Assembly: GCA_964016885.1 (NCBI GenBank)
Contig: OZ024744.1
Coordinates: 61,008,001-61,072,000 of the forward strand
DNA length: 64,000 nt
Source of the DNA: Eledone cirrhosa
Taxonomy: Eukaryota
Reading direction: 5' to 3'
Each line of letters begins with the position of its first letter. The stretch's first letter is position 1. Positions 8,580 through 59,690 of the stretch are shown piece after piece. The notes under the pieces were generated by a model. That model was not told where the DNA came from, made no database searches, and saw nothing but the letters and a program-made list of their open reading frames with translations. The position numbers were made by a program, and so were the translations under genes.

Positions 8580-8719
8580 TAGAAGTGGTTACACAACAGT
8601 TAGTTCACCATACTGAGAACAATTGTTTTACCTTAGTGGATCCATTACGAGCTGAGGAACCGCTAAGGTGAAACAATTGTTCTCAGTATGGTGAACTAAC
8701 TGTTGTGTAACCACTTCTA
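8580..8719. repeat. Fold-back inverted repeat (64-bp arms, 12-nt spacer) next to (TA)n; probable PLE terminal remnant
   Basis: 8580-8643 is the reverse complement of 8656-8719 with 3 mismatches. Confidence 0.9.
8642..8691 (+). ncRNA. Minimal type-I hammerhead ribozyme
   Basis: ccattacgag-CTGAGGA-ACC gctaa GGT-GAAA-CAATTG-T-T-ctcagtatgg. Intact core, palindromic stem III ACAAUUGU, stem I gag/ctc + tac/gta + cca/tgg. Confidence 0.72.
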
Positions 8720-11374: not shown

Positions 11375-13960
11375 ATCTTTCTTTATTTGCCACAGGGGCG
11401 TACAAAAATGGGACATTACTAGACGTGACAGTGGGGGTTTTACATAAAATCTTTAACAATGATAAATAACAATAAACTATATAAAAATAAAACAATTGAA
11501 ATCCCCATCAGGGGGGGGGGGGGGGTTAATGGTACTGTGGGGTTGTTTTACACACCGTGGATAGAACAACCCTCAACACCAAGAACACGTTTTGAAGGTG
11601 TTCCTGACTTCCCTCTGTTTATCTTCCTCAACCTACAGGTTTATATACAGAGAAGGCCCATTCACCTGGGCCATTTTCGCCACATTCACCCACCTTTCAG
11701 CGAATTTACTGGGGTGTAGCACCTCTCTCTCCACTCACACCTTCCTTTTGAAGTGATACTTAAAGAAGGGGATAAGTTGTTGTCCGGAGAGAAAGGTATT
11801 TGCCCTCAGTCCTTTTAACTCGTCCACCATATTACCTCTTTCGCCATAGCCACCAGACAGAGGAAAACCGCCTCTCCTTCGTTCTTAAATAAAGGCGGCG
11901 GGGTGATCCTCACGATGAACTCGGCTGACAACTGGATGCGTCCTACACGTGACAGTAGTCGTTCGACATAATTCCACAGGTCGGTCACTCCTGGGCATTG
12001 AACAATTGCGTGCAGAACGGTTTCGATGTCCTGCTCGCATCTTGGGCAGGTCCTTTTGGCAGGATCTCTGCCAGGGCGTCCGTGCCTATAGATTTTGTCT
12101 CGAACTGGTAGAGCTCCTCGGTAGCACTGTCAGGCCAGAGACCTCTGGAAGTTATCCATAGGCCCTGGAAGGAAAGTCCTGCCGAACGGACTGGTCAGTT
12201 CGTCCTCCTCAATGCCTAGAGTTTCCTCGAGAATGTCGTCGCACTTATCCTCCACTAATCCCCTATAGAATGTCGAAGTGGAGTCTCCGCTGATTGCTGT
12301 TTCCGCTTGGTAGACGGCGGTAGTAAATGACGGACGCTATGTAAGTGTTTGCCACCTCCGCTCGACCTTTCAAGGAGAGTTTGCACTCAGCCCACTTCTG
12401 GGTGAGTGCAAACACCTTTACCGTGACCTTGTTCCAGTTCTTGTCCACCTGGAGGTCTGGACCAAACCAGACCCCGAGCAATTTCACCTGTCCTTCCGTC
12501 CAGCATCCAACGACACTGTCGGAAGGCATGGGTTTGCCTCTCCATGTGCCAAGTTGCAAACCGACAGACTTGTTTGGATTTAGTCTTGCTCCTGTCAACG
12601 TTTCGTATTCCTGTAATAGGTTGCCGATTACCCCGATTTCCGAGGTTGTCGACACCATTACGGTTACGTCGTTGGTATAGGCCAACACTGCTTTTCGCAG
12701 TCCTGGTTCGATCGGGATGCCCTGCAACAGCTCCAACTTCCGCAGTAATGGGTCGAGAGTCAGTACATACAGAATGGAGGAGAGAGGGCATCCCTGATGG
12801 ATGGAATGCATGATTTGGAATGGCTTCGGTAGGTAGCCATTCACCTTGACTGCCGAGCAGATGCTGGTGTGCATGGCAGCGATCCAGCCTCTGAAGACGG
12901 GACCGAAGCCGGCCGCCTTGAGAACCGCTTCCAAGTATTGGAAATTGATCAGAGCCCCACCTTACCCTCTCTATGATGTATCGCATGAGGTGAAGGTTGT
13001 CGTGTATGGATCTGGTCAGGATTGCACACATTTGCGCTTCCCCTACCAGGTTCTCGACGATAAGCGCCAGCCTCGCTGCTAACACCTTGACCAAAATCTT
13101 TAACTCTCTGTTGAGCAGAGTTATGGGCCTGAAATTGCTTATCTCATTCCCCTTGATCAGCATTACTAAGCCTCTACCTACAGAACTGAGAATCCTCCTG
13201 TTCTGCTGCCAGTTGGAGTAGACCGTTTCGAGGACGCCATAGAACAAGTCTGGCATGCCTATGTAAAACTCATAGGGTAGACCATCTAAACTGGGTGATT
13301 TGCATTTCCCACAGCGGCCTAGGGCATCTTCTATTTAGCCCGCTGTGATCGGCCTTTCGCAGCTCTCTGCATCCGTGTTCGAGAGTCGTGGTACGCCGTT
13401 GAGGTAGGAGCTGAAGTCCATCACCTCCCTTGACGTACCGCTTTGCCTGAACAGTTGTGCAAAATGCTGCTGGAAGGCTGTGCACATCTGCTTGGATTCA
13501 AGTAGAATGCGTCCATCTTTGTCTTGCAAGGACCGAATTGTGGATTTGTTGCCACTTTTCGCCTCTGCCGGGCCCAGCTAACAGCTTTGGCTCCCTCATT
13601 TCTTAGAGCATGTGTTCTACTTCTGACAATACAACCTTCGAGTTTCACGTTCAAGAACTGGTCTAGTGCCATTCTCGCCGCTAGCACATCAGCTGTACTG
13701 CCATTCCTAAGTGCCTCTTCTACTTTAGCTACCAGTTCCTTTTCGGTTTTGTTTTTTTCTAAAGCTACTTCCTTGCTAAATGCTATCGATTCTACTATAA
13801 TTGCTCTCTTGAGAGAGCTCCACCACCTGTTGTTGACGATCGCCTCCGTCAACTGGCACTTAACTGATGTGTTAATCTCTTTACTGTAGGCCTTACGCGC
13901 CGGAAGCGACATGTTTAGCTTCCAGCATCCGGGTCCCTGTCTATGTGTTCTATCAAGGTA
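11375..13960 (-). mobile_element. Tx1/L1-clade LINE ORF2 (RT region), frameshifted and 5'-truncated
   Basis: GPGCWKLNMSL, NFRPITLLNRELKILVKVLAARL, HQGCPLSSILYVL, AYTNDV, VKLLGVWFG, LSLKGRAEVANTYIAS motifs spread over several frames. Confidence 0.9.
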
Positions 13961-14050
13961 TATATATATATATATATACCAGGGAAAGCGGATGTTTATT
14001 GACAATGATGATGATGATGATGATATATATTTATATATACATATATAAAA

Positions 14051-17000
14051 ACAAACGAAACGAAATTTAATTTCGTTTCGTTATTTGTTTTTATCGTCTC
14101 CGTTGAACCGGTACTTACTCACACTCTATGCAAGTTGGTCTGCCCACTACTAATTTTCATAGAAAAAGCATATAGCGATATGTGCTTTTACGATTCTCTA
14201 GAGAGGCCGGAAGATAGGTAAATATTGCTGATGAGTTGTAACAACAACGAAACTAGTTCAATATTCCTTGTCTGGCTTTCTGGAGAATAGAGGAAAGGTG
14301 TTTCCTCAAAAACCAGTATGACTCTAAAAACCGGTTTGTCTGTGTGTTTACATACAGAATAGCTGGCCACTCACAGTAAAGTGATCAGTGAAAAAAAAAA
14401 CTTGGTACATCTACATATGTATACGTGTGTGTATTCATATACATACTAGTATTTCAGTATACATATATGGATGTACATCTTTGACTTAATTGTTTGAGCG
14501 TCAGTCATACAAAAGTGAGTTACAAACGAAACGAAATTTAATTTCGTTTCGTTATTTGTTTTTATCGTCTCCGTTGAACCGGTACTTACTCACACTCTAT
14601 GCAAGTTGGTCTGCCCACTACTAATTTTCATAGAAAAAGCATATAGCGATATGTGCTTTTACGATTCTCTAGAGAGGCCGGAAGATAGGTAAATATTGCT
14701 GATGAGTTGTAACAACAACGAAACTAGTTCAATATTCCTTGTCTGGCTTTCTGGAGAATAGAGGAAAGGTGTTTCCTCAAAAACCAGTATGACTCTAAAA
14801 ACCGGTTTGTCTGTGTGTTTACATACAGAATAGCTGGCCACTCACAGTAAAGTGATCAGTGAAAAAAAAAACTTGGTACATCTACATATGTATACGTGTG
14901 TGTATTCATATACATACTAGTATTTCAGTATACATATATGGATGTACATCTTTGACTTAATTGTTTGAGCGTCAGTCATACAAAAGTGAGTTACAAACGA
15001 AACGAAATTTAATTTCGTTTCGTTATTTGTTTTTATCGTCTCCGTTGAACCGGTACTTACTCACACTCTATGCAAGTTGGTCTGCCCACTACTAATTTTC
15101 ATAGAAAAAGCATATAGCGATATGTGCTTTTACGATTCTCTAGAGAGGCCGGAAGATAGGTAAATATTGCTGATGAGTTGTAACAACAACGAAACTAGTT
15201 CAATATTCCTTGTCTGGCTTTCTGGAGAATAGAGGAAAGGTGTTTCCTCAAAAACCAGTATGACTCTAAAAACCGGTTTGTCTGTGTGTTTACATACAGA
15301 ATAGCTGGCCACTCACAGTAAAGTGATCAGTGAAAAAAAAAAAACTTGGTACATCTACATATGTATACGTGTGTGTATTCATATACATACTAGTATTTCA
15401 GTATACATATATGGATGTACATCTTTGACTTAATTGTTTGAGCGTCAGTCATACAAAAGTGAGTTACAAACGAAACGAAATTTAATTTCGTTTCGTTATT
15501 TGTTTTTATCGTCTCCGTTGAACCGGTACTTACTCACACTCTATGCAAGTTGGTCTGCCCACTACTAATTTTCATAGAAAAAGCATATAGCGATATGTGC
15601 TTTTACGATTCTCTAGAGAGGCCGGAAGATAGGTAAATATTGCTGATGAGTTGTAACAACAACGAAACTAGTTCAATATTCCTTGTCTGGCTTTCTGGAG
15701 AATAGAGGAAAGGTGTTTCCTCAAAAACCAGTATGACTCTAAAAACCGGTTTGTCTGTGTGTTTACATACAGAATAGCTGGCCACTCACAGTAAAGTGAT
15801 CAGTGAAAAAAAAAAAACTTGGTACATCTACATATGTATACGTGTGTGTATTCATATACATACTAGTATTTCAGTATACATATATGGATGTACATCTTTG
15901 ACTTAATTGTTTGAGCGTCAGTCATACAAAAGTGAGTTACAAACGAAACGAAATTTAATTTCGTTTCGTTATTTGTTTTTATCGTCTCCGTTGAACCGGT
16001 ACTTACTCACACTCTATGCAAGTTGGTCTGCCCACTACTAATTTTCATAGAAAAAGCATATAGCGATATGTGCTTTTACGATTCTCTAGAGAGGCCGGAA
16101 GATAGGTAAATATTGCTGATGAGTTGTAACAACAACGAAACTAGTTCAATATTCCTTGTCTGGCTTTCTGGAGAATAGAGGAAAGGTGTTTCCTCAAAAA
16201 CCAGTATGACTCTAAAAACCGGTTTGTCTGTGTGTTTACATACAGAATAGCTGGCCACTCACAGTAAAGTGATCAGTGAAAAAAAAAAACTTGGTACATC
16301 TACATATGTATACGTGTGTGTATTCATATACATACTAGTATTTCAGTATACATATATGGATGTACATCTTTGACTTAATTGTTTGAGCGTCAGTCATACA
16401 AAAGTGAGTTACAAACGAAACGAAATTTAATTTCGTTTCGTTATTTGTTTTTATCGTCTCCGTTGAACCGGTACTTACTCACACTCTATGCAAGTTGGTC
16501 TGCCCACTACTAATTTTCATAGAAAAAGCATATAGCGATATGTGCTTTTACGATTCTCTAGAGAGGCCGGAAGATAGGTAAATATTGCTGATGAGTTGTA
16601 ACAACAACGAAACTAGTTCAATATTCCTTGTCTGGCTTTCTGGAGAATAGAGGAAAGGTGTTTCCTCAAAAACCAGTATGACTCTAAAAACCGGTTTGTC
16701 TGTGTGTTTACATACAGAATAGCTGGCCACTCACAGTAAAGTGATCAGTGAAAAAAAAAAACTTGGTACATCTACATATGTATACGTGTGTGTATTCATA
16801 TACATACTAGTATTTCAGTATACATATATGGATGTACATCTTTGACTTAATTGTTTGAGCGTCAGTCATACAAAAGTGAGTTACAAACGAAACGAAATTT
16901 AATTTCGTTTCGTTATTTGTTTTTATCGTCTCCGTTGAACCGGTACTTACTCACACTCTATGCAAGTTGGTCTGCCCACTACTAATTTTCATAGAAAAAG

Positions 17001-20000
17001 CATATAGCGATATGTGCTTTTACGATTCTCTAGAGAGGCCGGAAGATAGGTAAATATTGCTGATGAGTTGTAACAACAACGAAACTAGTTCAATATTCCT
17101 TGTCTGGCTTTCTGGAGAATAGAGGAAAGGTGTTTCCTCAAAAACCAGTATGACTCTAAAAACCGGTTTGTCTGTGTGTTTACATACAGAATAGCTGGCC
17201 ACTCACAGTAAAGTGATCAGTGAAAAAAAAAAACTTGGTACATCTACATATGTATACGTGTGTGTATTCATATACATACTAGTATTTCAGTATACATATA
17301 TGGATGTACATCTTTGACTTAATTGTTTGAGCGTCAGTCATACAAAAGTGAGTTACAAACGAAACGAAATTTAATTTCGTTTCGTTATTTGTTTTTATCG
17401 TCTCCGTTGAACCGGTACTTACTCACACTCTATGCAAGTTGGTCTGCCCACTACTAATTTTCATAGAAAAAGCATATAGCGATATGTGCTTTTACGATTC
17501 TCTAGAGAGGCCGGAAGATAGGTAAATATTGCTGATGAGTTGTAACAACAACGAAACTAGTTCAATATTCCTTGTCTGGCTTTCTGGAGAATAGAGGAAA
17601 GGTGTTTCCTCAAAAACCAGTATGACTCTAAAAACCGGTTTGTCTGTGTGTTTACATACAGAATAGCTGGCCACTCACAGTAAAGTGATCAGTGAAAAAA
17701 AAAACTTGGTACATCTACATATGTATACGTGTGTGTATTCATATACATACTAGTATTTCAGTATACATATATGGATGTACATCTTTGACTTAATTGTTTG
17801 AGCGTCAGTCATACAAAAGTGAGTTACAAACGAAACGAAATTTAATTTCGTTTCGTTATTTGTTTTTATCGTCTCCGTTGAACCGGTACTTACTCACACT
17901 CTATGCAAGTTGGTCTGCCCACTACTAATTTTCATAGAAAAAGCATATAGCGATATGTGCTTTTACGATTCTCTAGAGAGGCCGGAAGATAGGTAAATAT
18001 TGCTGATGAGTTGTAACAACAACGAAACTAGTTCAATATTCCTTGTCTGGCTTTCTGGAGAATAGAGGAAAGGTGTTTCCTCAAAAACCAGTATGACTCT
18101 AAAAACCGGTTTGTCTGTGTGTTTACATACAGAATAGCTGGCCACTCACAGTAAAGTGATCAGTGAAAAAAAAAACTTGGTACATCTACATATGTATACG
18201 TGTGTGTATTCATATACATACTAGTATTTCAGTATACATATATGGATGTACATCTTTGACTTAATTGTTTGAGCGTCAGTCATACAAAAGTGAGTTACAA
18301 ACGAAACGAAATTTAATTTCGTTTCGTTATTTGTTTTTATCGTCTCCGTTGAACCGGTACTTACTCACACTCTATGCAAGTTGGTCTGCCCACTACTAAT
18401 TTTCATAGAAAAAGCATATAGCGATATGTGCTTTTACGATTCTCTAGAGAGGCCGGAAGATAGGTAAATATTGCTGATGAGTTGTAACAACAACGAAACT
18501 AGTTCAATATTCCTTGTCTGGCTTTCTGGAGAATAGAGGAAAGGTGTTTCCTCAAAAACCAGTATGACTCTAAAAACCGGTTTGTCTGTGTGTTTACATA
18601 CAGAATAGCTGGCCACTCACAGTAAAGTGATCAGTGAAAAAAAAACTTGGTACATCTACATATGTATACGTGTGTGTATTCATATACATACTAGTATTTC
18701 AGTATACATATATGGATGTACATCTTTGACTTAATTGTTTGAGCGTCAGTCATACAAAAGTGAGTTACAAACGAAACGAAATTTAATTTCGTTTCGTTAT
18801 TTGTTTTTATCGTCTCCGTTGAACCGGTACTTACTCACACTCTATGCAAGTTGGTCTGCCCACTACTAATTTTCATAGAAAAAGCATATAGCGATATGTG
18901 CTTTTACGATTCTCTAGAGAGGCCGGAAGATAGGTAAATATTGCTGATGAGTTGTAACAACAACGAAACTAGTTCAATATTCCTTGTCTGGCTTTCTGGA
19001 GAATAGAGGAAAGGTGTTTCCTCAAAAACCAGTATGACTCTAAAAACCGGTTTGTCTGTGTGTTTACATACAGAATAGCTGGCCACTCACAGTAAAGTGA
19101 TCAGTGAAAAAAAAAAACTTGGTACATCTACATATGTATACGTGTGTGTATTCATATACATACTAGTATTTCAGTATACATATATGGATGTACATCTTTG
19201 ACTTAATTGTTTGAGCGTCAGTCATACAAAAGTGAGTTACAAACGAAACGAAATTTAATTTCGTTTCGTTATTTGTTTTTATCGTCTCCGTTGAACCGGT
19301 ACTTACTCACACTCTATGCAAGTTGGTCTGCCCACTACTAATTTTCATAGAAAAAGCATATAGCGATATGTGCTTTTACGATTCTCTAGAGAGGCCGGAA
19401 GATAGGTAAATATTGCTGATGAGTTGTAACAACAACGAAACTAGTTCAATATTCCTTGTCTGGCTTTCTGGAGAATAGAGGAAAGGTGTTTCCTCAAAAA
19501 CCAGTATGACTCTAAAAACCGGTTTGTCTGTGTGTTTACATACAGAATAGCTGGCCACTCACAGTAAAGTGATCAGTGAAAAAAAAAACTTGGTACATCT
19601 ACATATGTATACGTGTGTGTATTCATATACATACTAGTATTTCAGTATACATATATGGATGTACATCTTTGACTTAATTGTTTGAGCGTCAGTCATACAA
19701 AAGTGAGTTACAAACGAAACGAAATTTAATTTCGTTTCGTTATTTGTTTTTATCGTCTCCGTTGAACCGGTACTTACTCACACTCTATGCAAGTTGGTCT
19801 GCCCACTACTAATTTTCATAGAAAAAGCATATAGCGATATGTGCTTTTACGATTCTCTAGAGAGGCCGGAAGATAGGTAAATATTGCTGATGAGTTGTAA
19901 CAACAACGAAACTAGTTCAATATTCCTTGTCTGGCTTTCTGGAGAATAGAGGAAAGGTGTTTCCTCAAAAACCAGTATGACTCTAAAAACCGGTTTGTCT

Positions 20001-20624
20001 GTGTGTTTACATACAGAATAGCTGGCCACTCACAGTAAAGTGATCAGTGAAAAAAAAAACTTGGTACATCTACATATGTATACGTGTGTGTATTCATATA
20101 CATACTAGTATTTCAGTATACATATATGGATGTACATCTTTGACTTAATTGTTTGAGCGTCAGTCATACAAAAGTGAGTTACAAACGAAACGAAATTTAA
20201 TTTCGTTTCGTTATTTGTTTTTATCGTCTCCGTTGAACCGGTACTTACTCACACTCTATGCAAGTTGGTCTGCCCACTACTAATTTTCATAGAAAAAGCA
20301 TATAGCGATATGTGCTTTTACGATTCTCTAGAGAGGCCGGAAGATAGGTAAATATTGCTGATGAGTTGTAACAACAACGAAACTAGTTCAATATTCCTTG
20401 TCTGGCTTTCTGGAGAATAGAGGAAAGGTGTTTCCTCAAAAACCAGTATGACTCTAAAAACCGGTTTGTCTGTGTGTTTACATACAGAATAGCTGGCCAC
20501 TCACAGTAAAGTGATCAGTGAAAAAAAAACTTGGTACATCTACATATGTATACGTGTGTGTATTCATATACATACTAGTATTTCAGTATACATATATGGA
20601 TGTACATCTTTGACTTAATTGTTT
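14051..20624 (+). repeat. Tandem array of 14 near-identical ~471-bp units (13 full + one 444-bp), each with a hammerhead ribozyme; candidate non-LTR retrozyme array
   Basis: Periods 470-473 bp; the only difference I could see between units is the length of one poly-A run. Flanked by (TA)-rich sequence. Confidence 0.95.
14216..14268 (+). ncRNA. Minimal type-I hammerhead ribozyme, copy 1 of 14 (CTGATGA starts at 14228, 14699, 15170, 15643, 16116, 16588, 17060, 17532, 18003, 18474, 18944, 19416, 19887, 20358)
   Basis: agg-ta-AATATTG CTGATGA GTTGT aaca ACAAC GAAA CTAG T T CAATATT-cct. Stem I 7+3 bp, full core, 5-bp stem II, palindromic stem III ACUAGU; predicted cleavage after GUU at 14258. Confidence 0.88.
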
Positions 20625-21616
20625 ATACATATATACTTATGCAAAAAAAAAAAAAATATATATATATATATACAGGTTTACAAAGCTAGTTGAAGAGCTG
20701 TCCCTTACTTACTCAATGATATAATAAGGTTTGTATGGTCAGAAATACAAACCCATTACTCAGAGTGCACATATATATTAATCGGTTAGATAAACGGCTA
20801 TGTGTTGGTGTTGATTTTAGTACATCAAATATACCTGGACCAATGCATCAGTTTCTGTATGTCAACAATAGTATCAACTGGAACCACTATTCACAGTAGT
20901 TAAGTAATATCATCAGATATTATGTAATTTGGCTCCAGAGTACTTTGTGAGCGGGGGTAGTCTCCATGAATGGAAAAGTTTGTTTAAATGACTAGTACAC
21001 ATCCAGTCATTGCCCTCACAAATATAGTAGTAATCCTAGACTTGTAGTGACACATGAGCTCTCCTTAAAGAAGAGATATGCCAAACCTAACCATTGTTAG
21101 GGAACCTGTTGGCAGGAAATTGAAAATTGAATATAAACCAAGGCTCTTGATCAGGGCGCTTATGTAGACAACAAAGACAAAGTTGCAACTTATATTTAAA
21201 AAAAAAATGAAATTATTATGTACAAAGGTGCACTACAAATAAATAAATTGAACTAGGATAAATAAAAATGTTCCGCTTAAAATTCAAATGTAGGTTTGTT
21301 GCCTATATAAATATAGGTTTACGTAGCTAGTCAAAGAGACTACTTACACAATGATATAATAAGGTTTGTATTGTTAGATATACAAACCCATTGCTGAGAG
21401 TGCACAGATATGTTAATCAGTTAGATAAACAACTATGTGTGGGTGTCGATATTAGTATATCAAATATAACCCATATATCATCATTTTATGTCCGTTATTC
21501 CCTGCTTGCAAGGGTGGGACATATACTCATATATATATATATGTATATATATGTGTGTATATATATATATCCTATATACCATATACAATGCTTCAAGTAA
21601 ACTACAAATTCCTTCC

Positions 21617-24050
21617 ATCATCATCATCATCGTTTAACATCCATCTTCCACGCTTGCATGGGTTTGGATGGGAAATTTTCCCACTTGAGGCAAGAGTGGT
21701 TGTCTTGCTCGTATAGGACTGTCTGGCGGGTTTTCTACGCCTGGGTGCCCTTCCCAACACCAACCACGTTTACAGTGTGGACTGGGAGGTTTTTACCGTG
21801 TTGCCTACACGGCCACATTACAGCGTGGACTGTGTTTTTTTTTTTTGTCGTGACACCTACACGACCTCATTTGTTTTGGACTGGATGTTGTGGTACCAAC
21901 ATAACTTTACATCGAAAGGGGTGGTGTGGATGGGGTGGGGGTAGTGGGACGGGGGTGTATTTTGGTTAAGAGGTGCCTTCTGACTGTAGGTTTCGCTTTG
22001 CACTTATGCAAGGCGGGTCCTCTGTATTACTGTGCAGCGCCAAAGATCTCGGTCCAGTGACATTGTCTTGGAGAGGTGTAAGTGTGTGAGGTTGGATTTT
22101 ATCAAGTCGTCCCAGGTTTTTCTGGGTCTGCCTACTCCATGGCTACCGTCTATTTTTATCGCCCTGCACTTTTTTATACAGCTGTCGTCTTTCATGCGCA
22201 TCACGTGACCGTACGAACGTAGTCTTCTCTCGAGTAAACAACATTTGATCCCTCTTATTCCTAATTTCTCCCTTAGTTCGTTTATGCTTTGCCGTTCACG
22301 TATATTACTATTACACATCCAGCGGAGCATGCAAGCTTCGTTTCTCTCCAGTCTGCGTATATCCTCTGCACACAATGCCCAAGTCTCACTGCCATGAAAC
22401 ATTGCTATTCGTATGCAAGCATCATACAGCCTGCCTTTCATTTTTAGAGAGAACCCTTTAGCGGCCAATAGTGGTATAAGCTCTCTGAACTTTTTCTATC
22501 CCGTTCTGACTTGAGCTACTGTACTCTCAGAGCAACCTCCACCACTGCTGATTTTGTCACCCAGGAAACAGAAGGTATCCACTATTTCTATAGAACCATC
22601 TGTGCAATGGAATGAGCTAGTATTCTGTGGGCACTTGCTGCTACTTATTGCACCTGAACACCGACCACATATAAAATCTATATTCTTAGTTAGCTTACCT
22701 GTGATCCCACTACATCTTTTATGCACCCATACTTTGCATTTGGGACATAAAATGGAGTTTCTGCCTCCTCCTTTCCTACACACTGAGCATGGCCATTTCC
22801 CAGATGGGACCAGTGCCCTATTTTCCTTCCTACAAACTAGAACTTTAGTCTTAGACAGGTTAATTTTAAGGCCTTTTGATTCTAGGCCATGCTTCCATGT
22901 TTGGAATTTATTCTCTAGTTCAGCCATTAATTCAGCTATGAGCGTTAGATCATCTGCGTATAGGAGTTCCCATGGGCAGCCGGTCTTGAACTCCTCTGTT
23001 ATAGCCTGAAGGGCAATAATAAATAGTAGGGGGCTAAGGACAGAGCCCTGATGAACACCAACTTTTACGCTAAACTCTTCACTATATTCGTTGTTAATTC
23101 GAACCTTGCTGACTGTTTCTTTATACATGGCTTGTATAGCTCTCACAAGCCATTCATCTACGCCTAGTTTTCTAAATGCCCACCAGATAATGGAGCGGGG
23201 GACTCTGTCAAAGGCTTTCTCCAAGTCAACAAAAGCTAAGTATAGGGGTTTACTTTTAGCTAGGTACTTCTCCTGTAGTTGTCGTACGATGAAAAGAGCA
23301 TCTGTGGTACTTTTACCTGACACAAACCCGAACTGCATTTTATCTAGATCAATTCGCTCTCTGATTAGTTGCGCTATAACTCTTTCTGTGACCTTCATGA
23401 CCTGGTCAATTAATTTAATGCCTCTATAGTTTCCCCTATCTAGGGCATCTCCTTTACCCTTGCAGCAGTTAATGATGATGCTGCTACGCCAGTCCTTCGG
23501 AACGACCCCATTCTGTATGACTTGGTTTACTATCCGGGTGACCATAGAGTGTCCCACCGTTCCAGATGCTTTCAGCATTTCAGCAACTATTTCCGAAGGC
23601 CCAGTTGCCTTGCCTGTCTACATATCTTTGATCGCCTTACTTATTATACTACCTTCAACTAGCACTGCTGGTCCCTCTATTGGATCGATGTGGGGGAGAC
23701 TGTCTTTCTCCCATTTATTCTCCTCATTTAGTAGCCTTTCATAGTGACACTTCCAAGCTACCTTCTTATCAGCGTCGGTGATGGCAAGTACACCATCATC
23801 ATTAAGGACACACTTCTCCCCGGCAATATCACGGTTTTCCTTGACACATTGCCTAGCAATCCTGAACACCTCACGTTTTTGGTCCTTGCGTTGTAGAACA
23901 TGCTTGAACTTTCTTTCCTCTGCTTGCGAAGTACACTTGTCTCCTAGCTTCCCTCCTGGCCACTTGATAGTCTTCTCTACTTACCCCATCCCGCCATGCT
24001 TTCCAAGCCTGCTTTTTGGCCTTGATTGACTCCTCCACCTTACTGTTCCA
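21617..24050 (-). mobile_element. RTE-clade LINE, 5'-truncated (RT + PHD-like finger + 3'UTR + (GAT)n)
   Basis: ORFs 23618-23869, 22496-23578 (NYRGIKL, FVDLEKAFDRVPR, GVHQGSVLSPLLF, LLYADDL) and 22004-22468 are consecutive pieces of one broken ORF. Confidence 0.95.
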
Positions 24051-31379: not shown

Positions 31380-33777
31380 ATAGTCAGGACTAGACATACT
31401 CAACGACAGAGGTGGACTACCCTGAGGAGAAGAATATGGAAGTTGAAGGACCCCACAGCCAGTAACAAATTTAAAAGTATATTACTTGATGCTTTTGACA
31501 GTAAGGAAGAGCAATTAAAGACGTACAATATAGAGGAACAGTGGGAATTCTTGAAGTTAACCTGTTGAAGGCGACATATGAAATCTGTGGCTGGAGCAGA
31601 CCTATAGGCAGGAGGAGAGTAACTTGGTAGTGAAACAGTAAGGTGGAGTAGTCAATCAAGGCCAAAAAGCAGGCTTGGAAAGTATGGCGGGATTGAGGAA
31701 GTAGAGAAGACTATCAAGTGGCCAGGAGAGAAGTTAGGAGACAAGTGTACTTTGCAAGAAGGGAAGCAGAGGATAGAAATTTTAAGCATATTCTACAGCG
31801 TGAGGACCAAAAACGTGAGGTGTTCAGGATTGCAAGACAATGTGTCAAGGAAAACCGTGATATTGTCCATAATGATGATGGTGTACTTGCCATCACTGAT
31901 GCTGATAAGAAGGTAGCTTGGAAGTGTCATTACGAGAGACTACTAAATGAGGAGAATAAATGGGAAAAAGATAGTCTGCCCCAAATCGATCCGATAGAGG
32001 GACCAACGGTGCAAGTTAAAGGTAGTATAATAAGTAAGGCAATCAAAGATATGAAGACAGACAAGGCAGCTGGGCCTTCGGAGATAGTTGCTGATATGTT
32101 GAAGGCATCTGGAATGGTGGGACGTACTATGGTCACCTTGATAGTAAACCAAGTAATACAGAATGGGGTCATACCAAATGACTGGCGTAGCAGCATCATC
32201 ATTAACTGCTACAAGGGTAAAGGAGATGTACTAGATAGGGGAAACTATAGAGCCATTAAGTTAGTTGACAAGGTCATGAAGGTCACAGAAAGAGTTATAG
32301 CACAACTAATCAGAGATCAAATTGATCTAGATGAAATGCAGTTTGGGTTTGTGTCAGGTAAAAGTACCACAGACGCTCATTTCCTTGTACGGCAACTACA
32401 GAAGTACCTAGCTAAAATTAAACCCCTCTACTTAGCTTTTGTTGACTTGGAGAAAGCCTTTGACAGAGTCCCCCACTCCATTATCTGGTGGGCTCTTAGA
32501 AAACTAGGTGTAGATGAATGGCTTGTGAGAGCTATACAAGCCATGTATAAAGAAACAGTCAGCAAGGTTCTAGTATGTAGAAACGAAAATAGGGCACAGG
32601 TGCCCTCTGGGAAATGGCCATGCTCAGTGTATAGGAAAGGAGTAGGTAGAAATTCCATTTTATGTCCCAAATGCAAACTATGGGTACATAAAAGATGTGT
32701 GATGACAGGTAAGCTATCTAAGAAAGTAAATTTTATATGTGGCCGATGCTCAGTAGCAAGTGCCAATAGGACACTAGCTCCTTCTATTGCCCAGATGGTT
32801 CTATAGAAATAGTGGACACTTTCCATTACCTGGGTGACAAAATCAACAGTGGTGGAGGGTGCTCTGAAAGTACAGTAGCTAGAGTCAGAACGGGATGGAA
32901 AAGGTTCAGAGAGCTTATACCGCTGTTGGCCACAAAGGTTTCTCTTTAAAAATGAAAGGCAGATTGTATGATGCCTGTGTACGAACAGCAATGTTACATG
33001 GTAGTGAGACATGGGCATTGTGTGCAGAGGATCTGCGCAGACTTGAAAGGAATGAAGCATGCATGTTCTGTTGGATGTGTAATAGTAATATACCCGAACG
33101 GCAAAACATAAATGAACTAAGTGAGAAATTAGGAATAAGAGGGATCAGATGCTGTTTACTTGAGAGAAGACTATGTTGGTATGGTCACGTGATGCGCATG
33201 AAAGATGACAGTTGTATAAAAAAGTGCAGGGCGATCAAAATTGATGGAAGTTACAGAGTAGGCAGACCCAGAAAAACCTGGGATGATTTGATAAATTCCA
33301 ACCTTACACACATGCACCTGGCCCGAGATCTTTGGCACCACGCACTAATACAGAAGACCCGCCTTGCCTATATACAAAGCGAAACCTACAGTCAGTAGAC
33401 ACCTTTTAACCAAATATACACCCCAACTGACTACTCCTACTCCATCCTCCCACTCCCACCAACCTCACCCTTTCTCTGAAAAGTTATGTTGGTACCACAA
33501 CACCCAGTCCAAACTAATGAGGTTGTGTAGGTGTCACGATAAAAAACACACAGTCCACGTTGTAATGTAGCCATGTAGGTAACACGTTAAAAAGCTCCCA
33601 GTCCACACTGTAAATGTGGTTGGTGTTAGGAAGGGCATCCAACCATAGAAAACCTGCCAGATAGTCCTATACGAGTAAGACACGGTCACCCGACCAATCT
33701 TGCCTCAAGTGGGACAATTCCCGTCTAACCCATGCTAGCGTGGAAGATAGATGTTAAATGATGATGATGATGATGAT
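31380..33777 (+). mobile_element. RTE-clade LINE, 5'-truncated, with an in-frame deletion of the RT catalytic core
   Basis: ORFs 31718-32806 and 32895-33398 are closely similar to the 21617-24050 copy but lack the QGSVLSP/YADD segment; 3'UTR and (GAT)n tail present. Confidence 0.95.
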
Positions 33778-37979: not shown

Positions 37980-38285
37980 ACAATATATTAATAAATGGAA
38001 ACTATATTTATAAAACCATATTTATTTTATTATACATATTTCAAGGGCAACCAAGGTAAATTATGGTGCGCTTTCATCAGATAAAATACAGATTTGGTTT
38101 ATAAATAAATATTGACATACCCAGAAAAAAAAAGACAACCTTAACGGTTGCAGGTCAATATTTATTTATAAACCAAATCTGTATTTTATCTGATGAAAGC
38201 GCACCATAATTTACCTTGGTTGCCCTTGAAATATGTATAATAAAATAAATATGGTTTTATAAATATAGTTTCCATTTATTAATAT

Positions 38286-38290
<5 letters not shown>
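37980..38290. repeat. Fold-back inverted repeat (137-bp arms, 37-nt spacer) carrying a hammerhead in each arm
   Basis: 37980-38116 is the reverse complement of 38154-38290; abuts (TA)n. Confidence 0.93.
38182..38247 (+). ncRNA. Type-I hammerhead ribozyme (mirror copy on the minus strand at 38023-38088)
   Basis: TATTTTAT CTGATGA AAG-c-GCA-CCA..TGG-t-TGC-c-CTT GAAA TATGTA T A ATAAAATA. 8-bp stem I, intact core, near-palindromic stem III, AUA site. Confidence 0.75.
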
Positions 38291-38328
<38 letters not shown>

Positions 38329-38423
38329 GAAAAACATGGGGAAACAAGGTTCAATGAATAAATCAAAGAATGAGTTTTACAATAGATTGGAAACACTCAA
38401 CAGATGGTTTTCCGGAGTTATTA

Positions 38424-38683
38424 ATATTAATTCAAAATATTAACAAAAATAGACATTCGTGTGATCAAGTATATTTTATTATACATATTTCAGAGGTACT
38501 GAGCTATCTTCAACAGTACGTCCTCATCAGATAAAATAAGACGATGCATGAGTCAGGGTATGTCATGCATCATCTTATTTTATCTGATGAGGACGTTCTG
38601 TTGAAGATAGCTAAGAACCTCTGAAATATGTATAATAAAATATACTTGATCACACGAATGTCTATTGTTGTTAATATTTTGAA

Positions 38684-45066: not shown

Positions 45067-48000
45067 CATCATCATCATCATCATCATTTTACGTCCGCTC
45101 TTCCCTGCTTGCATGGGTGGGACGGGTCTTATTCAGCACAGCATCTCTCCACTTGTCACAGTCCTTCGTCAACTCCACCGTGAGCTTCAGTGATCTGAGG
45201 TCTGTTCTCACCACCTCCACCCATATTTTTCGTGGTCTACCTCTACCACGTCTTCCTTCAACTGGCATTTCCTGGCACTTCTTCACCCATTGATCATCCT
45301 CCATGCGCATCACATGTCCATACCACCTCAGTCTCCTCTCCCGCACACTACATTCTATCCCTCTCAGACACAGTTTCTCTCTCAATACACCCATGCTTGG
45401 TCGTTCACGCATATTGACATTGCACATCCAACAAAGCATGCTTGCCTCATTTCTCGCCAGCCGTCGCATATCCTCTGCAATTGCTGCCCAAGTCTCACTA
45501 CCATGCAGCATCGCATACCTCACACAGGTATCATATAACCGGCCTTTCATATGCAGAGAAAGCAGCTCCCTAAACTTATTCCAGCCCGTCCTTATTCTAG
45601 ATACTATCGCCTTGGAACACCCATCTCCCATGCTAATCTGATCACCTAGGTACCAGAAGCTATCAACCACTTCTATAGCACCCACCTGCATTTGAAAAAT
45701 GTATCTAGCAATGCGACTTCTACTGTCAAATTTCCCTGTACATCTACTGCATACATATTACTCCCTACCTGTTAGTTTGCCTGCTATCCCACTACATCTC
45801 TTGAGTACCCAAGATCTGCATTGTGTGCATTTTATAGAATTTATGCCAGTTCCTTTTCTGCATATCGAACATGGCCATTTCCCTGATGGAATCAGAGTTT
45901 TGTCCTCTTTTCTACTCATCAACACTTTTGTTTTAGCTAGGTTCACTCTCAGTCCTCTTGCTTCCAACTGCTGTTTCCATAGCCAGAATTTATTCTCTAG
46001 CTTCTCTACTGATTCTGCTATAAGAACCAGATCATCAGCATAGAGAAGTTCCCATGGACAGCCAGTCTTAAACTCCTCTGTTATGGCTTGGAGGACTATA
46101 ATGAACAAGAGCGGGCTGAGGACTGACACCTGATGTACTCCTACTTGTATCTGGAATTCCTCACTAAACTCCATTCCTACCCTGACTTTACTGACAGCAC
46201 CTCTGTACAAAGCTTGCACTGTCCTCACAAGCCATTCCTCAACAGCTAGTTTCCTTAGGGACCACCAGATGACAGATCGGGGTTCTCTATCAAAGGCCTT
46301 CTCTAGGTCAACAAAAGCTAAGTATAGTGACTTATTCTTCTCTAAGAACCTCTCTTGTAGTTGTCTCTCTAAGAAGAGGACATCTGTTGTACTTTTCCAG
46401 GGCACAAAACCAAACTGCATCTCATCTAGTTTGACCCTTTCTCTAATTAGTTGCGCTAATATCCTTTCTGCCACTTTCATAACCTGATCCATCAGTTTTA
46501 TGCCCCTATAATTGCTCCTCTCCAGAGCATCCCCTTTATCTTTGTAGCAATTTATGAGAATACTGCTGCACCAGTTTTGGGGTATGACACCACCATATAT
46601 AGCCCGATTGATGATGTGTGCAACCAGTTTAGTGCCTATGTCCCCTGATGCCTTCAGCATCTCAGCAACTATCCCCGACGGTCCAGCGGCCTTACCATTT
46701 TTCATTTCCTTAATCGCCTCTTGGACCCTATATTCGTCAATCTCAGTAGCTGGTCCCTCTGACAGATCTACTGGGGGTAATTTCTCTCTCTCCCATTCGT
46801 TCTCCACATTCATCAGTTTCTCATAATGACATTTCCAGGCCTCCTTTTTCTGATCATTCGTGACACTAAGTACACCGGCATCATTCCGGACACACTTATC
46901 TCCAACAACATCCTGATTTGCACTGACACACTGCTTTGCAATGCGGAACACCACATGTCTCTGATCTTCCTGTCCCAGAACATTGGCAAACCTCCTACTC
47001 TCAGCCTCCCTGCGTGCTAAGTACACCTGACATCTAGCTTCTCTCTTAGCAGCTGTATATCCTTCTCTACTTCCACCATTTTTTCAAGCATTCCATGCTA
47101 GTCTTTTGTCTCTAATGGCCCTATCTAGTGTGCCAGGTCACTCTCTGTCTGGTTGGAGCTCTGTTCCAGCCACAAGTTTCTTCAGTAGCCTGCAGTAAGT
47201 TGTCACGTAAGAAATTCCAGTTATCATCTGTCATACGACTCTTCTTTTTCATCTTACACTTGAAGGGCTTTGCTAAATTTATATTTTAATGAAAGGTCTT
47301 TTAGCTTCCAGACCTTTCTTTTCCACACCTTTCTGTATGTCTCATTCCGTCTCTTGCTTCCTGAGATATCACTAACAACTAACCTATGCTGTGGGGTACA
47401 TTCTTCCCCAGGGTATGCCTTGTTATTTGACATCATCTGCCTGTCCCACTGCCTAACTAGCAAGAAGTCAATCTGGCTTATGTGCTTGCCTGATTTGTAG
47501 GTTATTTGGTGGTTGGCAGGTTTCTGGAAGTTAGTGTTGCAAATGGTTAGTGCACTTGAATCACAAAATTCAAGAAGTCTCGCTCCTACTTCATTTCTTG
47601 AGTCGTAATGGTGCCCACCATGTACCCAAGTGTAACCATCCTGGAGCTGTCCAACATGACCATTGAAATCTCCTGCTTACATAACAATGTCTCCGTCCTC
47701 TGTCATTGAGGCTGTTTGGAAAAGTTGCTAATAAAAGCAGTATTTCTCTTCTTTACCTAGGCCTGTCTGGGGAGCATAGGCAGAGATGATTGTCAGTAGT
47801 CTCCTGCCTACAACTAATCTAAGCTTAATTATTCTATTACTAACTCAAACTACCTCTATTGTCTTATTGATCCATCTCTCAGCCAGTAATATGCCCACCC
47901 CACCTAACCCATCACCATTATCCACCCAGAAAAGCTTATAACTAAGATGTTTGCCTGCGATTGGTCTCTCCATCTCACCTCTTGCACGCAGCACATATCC

Positions 48001-56946: not shown

Positions 56947-59160
56947 TCATCATCATCATCACCATTTTACGTCCGTTCTTCCACGCTAGCATGGGTTAGA
57001 CGGGTTGTCCTGTTGTGGGCAGTGTCTGGTCGGCTGACCATGCCTTGCTCATACAGGAACTGATTTGGCTTGATTTCTACAGCTGGATGCCCTTCCTAAC
57101 ACCAACCTCATTTACAGTGAGTGCTGGGTGCTTTTCCGTGGCGCCTACACGTCCACTTTACAGTGTGGGCTGCGTGCTTTTTTGCCGGGGCACCTCCACG
57201 ACCACCTTGCGGTGGGGGATGTGGGGGCATATTGTCTATATGCTTCAGCTTCAGCTTGTAGCCATGGGAGGTCGGGTACTCTGTATTACAGCGTGACGCC
57301 AGAGGTCACGGTCGTGTGTCATCGCCTTTGAGAGGTGTAATTGGGTAAGGTCGGCTTTTATCACCTCATCCCAAGTCATCTTGGGTCTCCCCACTTCGCG
57401 GTTTCCATCAACTTCTAGTGCTCTGCACCTTTTTATGCAGCTGTCATCCTTCATACGCATCACATGTCCATACCAGCGCAACCGCCTCTCCTGCACACAG
57501 CATTTGATTCCTCTTATGCTCAGTCTCTCTCTCAATTCATTTATGCTTTGTCGTTGGCGTATATTACTATTACACATCCATCGGAGCATGCAGGCTTCGT
57601 TTCTCTCTAATCTACGTAAGTCTTCCACCTTCAGCACCCAGGTCTCACTACCATGCAACATCGCTGTTCGGATACACGCATCATACAGTCTGCCTTTCAT
57701 TCTGAGGGAGAAGCCTTTTGCAGCTAGCAGTGGCAGTAGCTCCCTGAACTTCTTCCATCCCGTTCTTACCCTAGTTATTGTACTTTCTGAACACCCACCT
57801 CCGCTGCTAATTCGGTCACCTAGGTAGCAGAAACTGTCTACTGTTTCTACAGGGCCCTCCCAGAGTTTGGTGGTACTTGTTTCCTGTGGCTGTTTGCTGC
57901 TTGCTGTCCCAGCACAGCTGCTGCATGTGAAGCCTACATTCTTAATTAAGCTTCCTGAGATCCCGCTACATCTCTTGTGTACCCACTTTTTGCATTTGGG
58001 GCAGAGAATGGAGTTCCTACCTACACATTTCCCTGAGGGGATCTGGGTTCTGTTTTCTCGTCTACTTACAAGAACCTTAGTCTTTGTCATGTTGACTTTG
58101 AGACCCTTTCTTTCTAGTCCCTGCTTCCAAGTTTGGAATTTATTTTCTAGTTCTACCATAGATTCAGCTATAAGTGCGAGGTCATCAGCATACAGGAGTT
58201 CCCATGGGCATCCGGTCTTAAACTCCTCCGTTATTGCCTGCAGGACTATGATGAACAGGAGGGGACTAAGAACAGAGCCCTGGTGGACCCCAACCTGTAC
58301 GCTAAATTCCTCGCTATACTCATTGCTAATCCTAACTTTGCTGACTGCTCCCCTATACATGGCTTGTACCGCTTTCACAAGCCATTCATCTACTCCTAGT
58401 TTTCTAAGAGCCCACCAGATTACAGCACGGGGAACTCTGTCAAAGGCTTTCTCAAGGTCGACAAATGCCAAGTAGAGTGGCTTACTTTTAGCTAGGTACT
58501 TTTCCTGTAGCTGCCTCACAAGGAAGAGGGCATCAGTGGTGCCTCTTCCTGGTACAAACCCAAATTGCATCTCGTCTATTTTCACCCGGTCCCTAATCAA
58601 CTGTGCTATAACTCTTTCTGTTACTTTCATGACCTGGTCCATCAGCTTTATACCTCTATAGTTTCCTCTATCTAGTGCATCACCTTTACCTTTGTAGCAG
58701 TTGACAATGATGCTACTGCACCAATCTTTTGGTATGACACCTTCTAGTATTACCTTGTTAACAATATGTGTGGTTATAGTGTGACCTACAGACCCAGATG
58801 CCTTCAGCATTTCGGCAGCTATACCCGATGGACCTGTTGCCTTCCCCATCTTCATATCTTTGATTGCCTTACTTACTATGCTGCTGCTGATTTGTACTGC
58901 TGGCCCCTCTATAGGGTCTACTTGGGGTAGGGTCTCTTCTTCCCATGCATTCTCCACATTTAGTAATCTATCATAATGACTCTTCCATGCATCTTTCTTC
59001 TCAGCACTTGTGAGGGCAAGCTCACCTTTATCATTCCGGATACACTTCTCTCCAATGATATCACAACTCTCTCTGACACACTGCCTCGCAATCTTGAACA
59101 CCTCCTGTTTCTGGTCCTCACGTTGCAAAACATGCTTGAATTTTCTATCCTCTGCTACAG
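56947..59160 (-). mobile_element. RTE-clade LINE, 5'-truncated, with an uninterrupted ~630-codon RT/C-terminal reading frame
   Basis: ORF 57251-59215 has all RT motifs including YADD. The first ~20 aa are flanking non-LINE sequence. 3'UTR module and (GAT)n tail present. Confidence 0.96.
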
Positions 59161-59690
59161 AATAGAGAAGGCATTTCCCTGGAGGATGGTGAGTGGGACA
59201 TGCTGGTAGAGCCATTCCAGCTTGTGGTACCAGTACAACTAAATTCCAACACTAAAGTGCTACAATATTTGACTGAGTCGGGAATAGTGATTGGGTGTGG
59301 CAGCGGGGGCCAGTAAGAGTGGTGGTTGGGCTGCCTGTTACTAGAGGGAAGGATAGGATGGCCTTAGGGTAAATGAGTGACACCTGGCAGTACTGTAGAG
59401 GAGTGGTGCATGGGCTACCATGCTAGCATGTTTTGGCTTGGAGGAGAGGAATTTAAGAATAAATTTGCCAGAGTAAATTTAATATATGTATGTATTTGTA
59501 TATATATCATCATCATCGTTTAATGCCTATCTTCTATGCTAGCATGGGTTAGACGAGAATTGTCCCACTTGAGCCAAGATTGATCAGGTGACCATGTCTC
59601 GTTCATATATATATGTCAACATGAATGGACCTGTTATTTTTATCTAAAGACATTTTTTTCCAATTCCAATCTATCTTATATCTCATTCTT

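Follow-up and report, generated by a model that had tools for sequence, protein, structure and literature searches.

A tandem hammerhead repeat of Eledone cirrhosa reads as a non-LTR retrozyme with a predicted RNA fold under selection and Penelope-like insertion ends

We analysed a 64,000-nt window of the Eledone cirrhosa genome and read the array at 14051-20624 as one young insertion of a non-coding hammerhead repeat, a non-LTR retrozyme. We put the probability of this reading at about 0.78, a figure that covers it as a whole: a retrozyme with a folded plus strand RNA, copied by a Penelope-like reverse transcriptase (RT) and endonuclease at two fixed sites, probably from a circular monomer. 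By each feature that we assessed from sequence, the 471-nt repeat classes as a non-LTR retrozyme. Its first copy spans 14051-14521, and the length of an A-run is the sole difference among the 13.9 copies of the array. The array has a GC content of ~35% and no coding frame of at least 150 aa, and the retrozyme insertions consist of units and nothing else, with no LTR structure.

Exact copies of the window's ribozyme segment number 5,212 in the 3.0-Gb genome, a variant with a compensatory stem II pair yields 2,603 exact copies, and a looser pattern that also covers a sister family gives 23,325 matches; the reversed controls gave 0 in all three cases. Main-family insertions are dispersed on many contigs. 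Our sample comprises 78 main-family insertion records representing 77 distinct arrays (one is in two pieces) and is non-random, its members being either the best matches of a similarity search or those first listed on one contig (C1). The sister family (L080:8079-9901, L136 and L139-L144) is 61% identical and has a GUA triplet; its units are 466-538 nt long, varying in length through an internal (TA)n hairpin. We also found the repeat junction in 7 of 8 contig sets from public runs, with the same subfamily changes as in this genome. Part of the unit (window 14051-14992) is held by 20 public runs from 17 studies, coded as 17 organisms; the contigs compared are mostly 90-99% alike, which could mean shared ancestry, horizontal spread or mixed samples. 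No RNA run is among the public runs listed with the unit, which has no bearing on expression.

All 14 units carry the core of a type I hammerhead, with a predicted cut after 14258, at a GUU triplet, in the first unit. The motif aligns to Rfam Hammerhead_HH9 with E=9e-8 and 37.7 bits, below the gathering score of 52; at the gathering score Rfam gave no match in the whole window, and no other ribozyme family was found there with Rfam. Stem III is a 6-nt palindrome that is unable to close on itself, which is the usual metazoan arrangement and is cleaved as a dimer (PMC4209133; published work is cited throughout from excerpts). Two adjacent hammerheads would pair via this palindrome and cut a multimer into monomers; with its ends kept in place by the extended stem I, each monomer would then be closed into a circle by ligation. 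In the predicted fold it is helix 3 (14193-14288) that would hold together both ends of the self-cleaved monomer. We consider dimeric cleavage and ligation into circles fairly likely. The GUU triplet, found in 49 of 61 loci, is derived from GUC, which is present in older lineages (11 of 61 loci) and in 3 of 4 contig sets from public runs. A U at the cleavage position of the hammerhead triplet slows cleavage. No GUU cleavage data were found in the one paper checked on this point. For Xenopus retrozyme dimers, cleavage in vitro was seen in 1 of 9 (bioRxiv 10.64898/2026.07.22.740005). We count both the GUU triplet and the Xenopus result against a circle made by an active ribozyme.

The layout of the insertions is our strongest evidence, and it matches the 'tail' signature of Penelope-like elements (PLEs). 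Head-to-head structures, in which an antisense arm is followed by a sense arm, account for 57 of the 78 records, and tail-to-tail structures for 0. Where an insertion has two arms with both ends resolved, 49 of 52 have one A end (unit positions 42-47) and one B end (428-445), and none has A+A or B+B; overall, 127 of 130 outer ends lie at two unit positions ~70 nt apart. Flanks are AT-alternating in 112 of 130 cases, mostly (TA)n. We checked 19 of the 21 seemingly one-armed insertions and found a clear tiny arm of the complementary type in 8, including the one in this window (Table 1). Target duplications of 8-12 bp were readable at 5 of the first 25 loci, the rest lying in microsatellite. The sister family has fixed ends homologous to A and B of the main family, ~57 nt apart.

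An inverted-repeat-plus-tail layout is typical of PLEs (PMC3846280, PMC8557442). It has been traced to a Penelope-like protein that was shown to cut and extend both target strands and to begin copying at two sites within the RNA, which delimit the tail (PMC11167929); head-to-head Penelope structures have been read instead as self-priming on an antisense template (PMC3846280). Under the model of PMC11167929, the head-to-head polarity makes the hammerhead plus strand the template. A Penelope-like protein, likely of Neptune type, would nick both strands of (TA)n DNA, and each target 3' end would prime copying at one of the two sites, circling the template many times. RT+GIY-YIG elements of this genome, whose open frames measure 844-1096 aa, have a like two-ended inverted layout in (TA)n, and 4 of the 5 RT+GIY-YIG proteins inspected have a CX2-5CxxC linker, a feature tied to Neptune/Nematis and to microsatellite targeting (PMC8557442). 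BLAST found no retrozyme homology to the pLTR of a Penelope-like element among 38 GIY-YIG loci (150 scored, 10,597 candidates); one PLE family gave a weak match of 30 nt (E 0.38, antisense to its frame), which we discounted. The 471-nt unit has no RT or GIY-YIG ORF; it acts like a PLE substrate and is not itself a PLE. Judging from these ends, it was very probably Penelope-like machinery that copied the retrozyme into the genome.

Several Penelope-like loci of this genome have hammerheads of their own. One family (L073, L074, L079, L083) has a hammerhead 3' of its RT+GIY-YIG frame, with a palindromic stem III, U at the cut and CCAAT- and TATA-like motifs in front of it; in L083 the insertion is head-to-head and its two ends are ~55 nt apart. 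In a second family (L070, L071, L075, L084) the frames reach 938 aa, the minimal hammerhead core is a variant one, and the two ends lie in (TA)n at a distance of ~65 nt. More hammerhead-like motifs, of unrelated sequence, lie near GIY-YIG loci (L075, L078, L081, L082, L060, L085, L077, L080:7351). This suggests that the genome may hold many ribozyme-bearing families.

Table 1. Insertion, ribozyme and predicted RNA structure of the first unit (window coordinates).
Feature	Position	Strand	Description
Left target-site duplication copy	14037..14047	+	In AT microsatellite; 8-11 bp; final 3 nt common to end A
Tiny antisense arm	14045..14055	-	Unit positions 44 to 34, fixed end A; 5-nt microhomology overlap with long arm
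Long arm of insertion	14051..20624	+	13.9 tandem units of 470-473 nt; stops at unit position 445 = fixed end B
Right target-site duplication copy	20625..20635	+	
Helix 1	14054..14082	+	13 bp, loop TTA; inside ~70-nt 'tail' between ends B and A; 8-bp hairpin at equivalent place in sister family
Weak hairpin	14092..14113	+	Its base falls on fixed end A (unit position 44 = 14094); mean pair probability 0.46
Long-range helix, 5' arm	14117..14122	+	Pairs with 14515-14520; retained in sister family
14-pair hairpin	14125..14163	+	5' arm 14127-14138 = U6-type PSE-like motif with two derived A>G changes here
Helix 2	14164..14189	+	11 bp, one G-U, loop GCGA (derived A>G state); holds TATA-like element 14171-14176
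Helix 3	14193..14288	+	18-bp extension of hammerhead stem I, three G-U
Type I hammerhead	14216..14268	+	Core 14228-14234 and 14249-14252; stem II 14235-14248; palindromic stem III 14252-14257
Helix 4	14290..14307	+	7-bp hairpin
Domain	14316..14510	+	Closed by 8-bp long-range helix 14316-23/14503-10; encloses hairpins 14331-66 and 14368-90 and helix 14405-76
Helix 5	14405..14476	+	19 pairs, one G-U, one C-A mismatch
Small weak hairpin, AU-rich loop	14479..14498	+	At fixed end B (unit positions 441-445 = 14491-14495)

An earlier note on this DNA had described the unit as five helices, all of which are present in the predicted circular fold at the positions that it gave or implied. That fold has 16 helices overall with 66% of bases paired, and the five-helix list missed several, including the long-range pairings 14117-22/14515-20 and 14316-23/14503-10. 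The circular minimum free energy (MFE) is -152.0 kcal/mol (z -9.2) for the plus strand and -114.9 (z -4.1) for the minus strand, and 0 of 60 shuffles folded as low for either strand, which bears out the note's expectation of a fold more stable than shuffled sequence. With G-U pairs forbidden the strands become equal (-107.1 for plus and -105.8 for minus), so the strand asymmetry comes entirely from G-U pairs. Folded as DNA, both strands again beat shuffles (-67.5 for plus and -62.4 for minus). We folded nine monomers and found lower energy on the plus strand in 9 of 9, with L151 having a similar z on both strands. A strand-neutral count in this unit alone, inside helices that both strands form without G-U, gave 6 G-U versus 1 A-C opposition (p=0.125, not significant), and the same count over all possible stems of the unit gave 12 versus 7. 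Keeping the hammerhead core open costs 1.5 kcal/mol in the predicted monomer. The hairpin at fixed end B has a mean pair probability of 0.21 in this subfamily, 0.73 in L129 and 0.53 in the sister family. Helix 5 is largely AT/GT-alternating sequence and self-complementary by composition; sub-threshold microRNA and sRNA matches in Rfam over the AT-alternating hairpins were rejected as compositional.

The evidence supports selection on the folded RNA of the hammerhead strand, on the grounds of pair-keeping in fixed variants, helix order in the sister family and insertion polarity. Array-fixed changes, those that the copied template already carried, were polarised with a tree built from 46 haplotypes at 61 loci; changes found in a single unit served for comparison. 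At paired sites the pair was kept in 48 of 69 array-fixed changes against 35 of 108 singletons (Fisher p=1.5e-6), a count biased somewhat by taking the pair list from the window unit's own fold; the remaining 21 of 69 broke a pair. The 16 core nucleotides received 0 of 100 fixed changes (p about 0.03), and fixed changes were not depleted at paired positions (69 of 100 versus 108 of 153 singletons, p=0.78). Both sides had changed in only 1 of 152 consensus pairs among nine aligned main-family units. Between the sister and main families, both-sided changes occur in 3 stem I and 3 stem II pairs, around the ribozyme where the alignment is reliable. In a plain alignment the 3' half of the sister family is out of register, which makes covariation over the whole unit reliable only near the ribozyme; outside this region the comparison rests on independent folds. 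Folded independently, the sister family forms 16 helices in the same order as the main family, both long-range helices included, so the conservation of helices that had been expected of homologues recurs at 61% identity. The earlier proposal of selection on a compact branched RNA, in a retrozyme and not a plain DNA satellite, thus stands on both counts; calling it 'viroid-like' was an overreach, as the array has no minus-strand hammerhead core and shows no sign of RNA-to-RNA replication.

The same proposal had wobbles and loops favouring the ribozyme strand. This is right for the G-U-driven asymmetry, with z scores of -9.2 and -4.1, and is not borne out for the GNRA loop or the individual wobbles as selected features. 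The GCGA loop is present in the window as a derived A>G state and is found in 25 of the 61 loci with a haplotype, all in one young clade, while 32 of 61 have ACGA and the sister family has ATAT. At the family root, 4 of the 14 G-U pairs of the window unit were A-U, making these wobbles recent, and changes from Watson-Crick to G-U versus A-C number 26:11 among fixed changes against 26:22 among singletons (p=0.18). The wobbles are tolerated states of the plus strand helix, not conserved features, whether or not editing takes place.

Fixed A>G changes, mostly at paired A, outnumber T>C by 35:17 (p=0.018), or by 23:10 when each site is counted once (p=0.035), while singletons are at 17:19. A-to-I editing of the helices may add A>G changes that create new G-U pairs, and we put editing as the source of these changes at a little short of an even chance on the sequence patterns. 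Selection alone, without RNA editing, could also give the G-U excess if A>G is tolerated in A-U pairs and T>C is not, which we regard as an even bet. The event count speaks against selection alone, with 30 paired A>G versus 3 C>T (p=0.002), whereas the site count of 17:5 does not differ significantly from the 15:12 of singletons (p=0.14). Paired A outnumber paired C by 88 to 53, and the 5' neighbour is A or T in 26 of 35 events, indistinguishable from 86 of 138 in the background, both of which suit selection without editing. Harder to reconcile with it are the recurrence of A>G four times each at unit positions 153 and 213, and the excess of A>G over T>C in both counts set against the singleton ratio.

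We think it probable, from the variants in the arrays, that a single circular monomer was copied repeatedly as the template, and we infer from sequence that the RNA would be circular. With 14 ends at tile boundaries set aside, just 1 of 109 inner arm ends falls within 5 nt of the ribozyme cut, where 2.6 would be expected; cut linear RNA was therefore not the usual template. In 9 of 43 arrays a variant is fixed in every unit and absent from the other sampled loci (private, that is, within ~75 sampled loci only), and in 8 of these it is in both arms. The arms of one insertion differ at no more than 2 sites in 41 of 52 loci. L034:1544-5672 has arms from two subfamilies that differ at 15 sites, which implies that a single event used two RNA molecules; in L120 there may be a tiny arm that looks like a sister-family end, a weak likeness noticed post hoc.

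Alternatively, the Penelope machinery could have copied a long uncleaved linear multimer from a donor array, perhaps a homogeneous one outside our sample, with the ribozyme weak or dispensable and long arrays arising via unequal exchange. We consider this unlikely, although several observations agree with it: the GUU triplet has spread in the most abundant lineages, ribozyme mutants left insertion of the anole element in vitro unaffected (PMC11167929), and uncleaved RNA likewise predicts no inner ends at the cut site. L024 and L032+33 have period-2 and period-6 variant patterns, which also fit and imply that some tandem units came from later duplication or multimeric templates. However, the catalytic core is without fixed change, core and loop sequences are kept in the 61% sister family, single arrays have variants fixed in as many as 19 units spread over the two arms, and the 14 units of the window are without substitution. 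We prefer repeated copying of one circular monomer, with arrays that would later be reshaped by local duplication.

A 12-nt block 89 nt upstream of the ribozyme is common to both families. Compared with 3 U6 promoters and 1 U6atac promoter of this genome, its commonest form agrees with one U6 promoter, at -78, in 12 of 12 positions and is similar to the two other U6 and the one U6atac promoters; a TATA-like element follows the block by 43-44 nt, compared with 47-49 nt in the U6/U6atac genes. None of 14 further U6 matches passed the start-motif filter, so they are not part of this comparison. The U2 and RNase P upstream regions of this genome have no match to the block. The units would be transcribed, possibly from this U6-type PSE/TATA-like motif just upstream of the ribozyme, a source that the sequence makes slightly better than an even chance. 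The window subfamily has 2 mismatches in the PSE-like block and A>G changes in both elements, yet it is young and widespread.

Such a motif raises the reading that end A is no internal start site but simply the point where RNA polymerase III transcripts terminate, at a T-run, and in the main family a T5 run does stop 2 nt before end A. We find this improbable: the homologous end of the sister family is several bases past T-runs that would halt the polymerase first, some subfamilies with T5 just before end B still produce A-ended arms, inner ends show no excess at the predicted start near 14205 (5 of 109 at unit positions 150-165 against 3.7 expected), and the strict A+B pairing is left unexplained. 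Less probable still is a DNA satellite whose inverted repeats act at the DNA level (as cruciforms, promoter palindromes or microsatellite derivatives) with the RNA fold as a by-product. The equal folding of the strands without G-U, the stability of both as DNA, the microsatellite-like helix 5 and the overlap of two hairpins with promoter-like motifs would agree with it. The layout of insertions scattered over many contigs, with their constant polarity, fixed ends and target duplications, already largely refutes it; the hammerhead is conserved on one strand only and fixed variants keep RNA-type pairs.

A more far-reaching picture, which we hold to be doubtful, is that of a self-transcribing circular RNA with its own snRNA-type promoter, ADAR-edited helices and two structure-defined start sites for a Penelope-like enzyme dimer. 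Starting from the two ends of a DNA break, the dimer would travel round the circle, and the edits would be written back to the genome. If true, pairs in the family would change stepwise from A-U through G-U to G-C, and the family would have mutated even its own promoter without ceasing to spread. In the published work covered here, copying of animal retrozymes from circles by PLEs is proposed, not demonstrated. For this family the two start positions are given to the nucleotide, within a structure that is kept in a family of 61% identity, and the same genome has candidate enzymes whose frames are intact (for example in L070 and L072); the copying step is thus testable in the existing in vitro Penelope assay. 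The family also provides a natural data set in which mutation and selection can be compared for the fold of a small non-coding RNA.

Elsewhere in the window, four frames match the Pfam RT domain RVT_1 (22496-23617, 45758-47083, 57251-59251 and 31697-32806) and are LINE-like, and in two of them a PHD-finger match overlaps the place where the RT region ends; these neighbours were rejected as part of the insertion and are unrelated. The frames at 12387-13334 and 13421-14080 have a retroelement-like look and no Pfam match. At 38080-38660 there are two inverted pairs of hammerhead-like motifs (38080-/38190+ and 38530-/38584+), and a further core-like match lies at 8652. Positions 1-1118 hold a 60/61-bp tandem repeat of 18.5 copies with 95% matches.

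Among known systems, metazoan non-LTR retrozymes are alike in having a type I hammerhead per unit in a short, low-GC, non-coding tandem repeat (PMC7229834; bioRxiv 10.64898/2026.07.22.740005), as well as a highly self-paired predicted circle, target duplications of >4 bp and co-occurrence with PLEs; those of axolotl and newt share the weak palindromic stem III (PMC7229834). That retrozyme RNAs are highly self-paired is already known, and that part alone is ordinary. The unit of 471 nt is longer than the 170-400 nt of PMC7229834 and inside the 51-972 bp of bioRxiv 10.64898/2026.07.22.740005. It has a GUU triplet where known non-LTR retrozymes have GUC, and a U6-type PSE-like motif where known retrozymes seem promoterless in the excerpted PMC7761336. 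Head-to-head arms and fixed ends, both present here, are not described for non-LTR retrozymes in the published excerpts; likewise, the published work yielded in the parts covered no description of two-armed fixed-end retrozyme insertions, editing-type drift or a U6-type motif. Mobilisation of retrozymes by Penelope has been proposed from co-occurrence and pLTR homology only (PMC7229834; bioRxiv 10.64898/2026.07.22.740005), and the latter work regards the mechanism as awaiting elucidation and prefers unequal crossover as the route of later expansion.

Endonuclease-positive PLEs (PMC11167929, PMC3846280, PMC8557442) are alike in their inverted, 5'-truncated head-to-head arms, two fixed 3' ends around a tail, AT-rich or (TA)n targets, 8-12-bp target duplications and a hammerhead upstream of the start sites. 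In contrast to them, this unit has no ORF, a tail of ~70 nt instead of 30-40, and many full tandem units per arm, and it lacks pLTR homology to any of the 38 inspected GIY-YIG loci. Hammerhead viroids and viroid-like satellite RNAs also have a small, branched, highly paired predicted circle, and here the hammerhead would need dimerisation; in contrast to the viroids, the present RNA is genome-encoded, has its ribozyme core on one strand and spreads via DNA copies. Newt satellite 2 has snRNA-type promoter elements; compared with it, the motif here resembles the U6/U6atac promoters of this genome, not its U2 promoters. The newt repeat is like ours a tandem hammerhead repeat with a palindromic stem III (PMC7229834), in a different host and with a different sequence.
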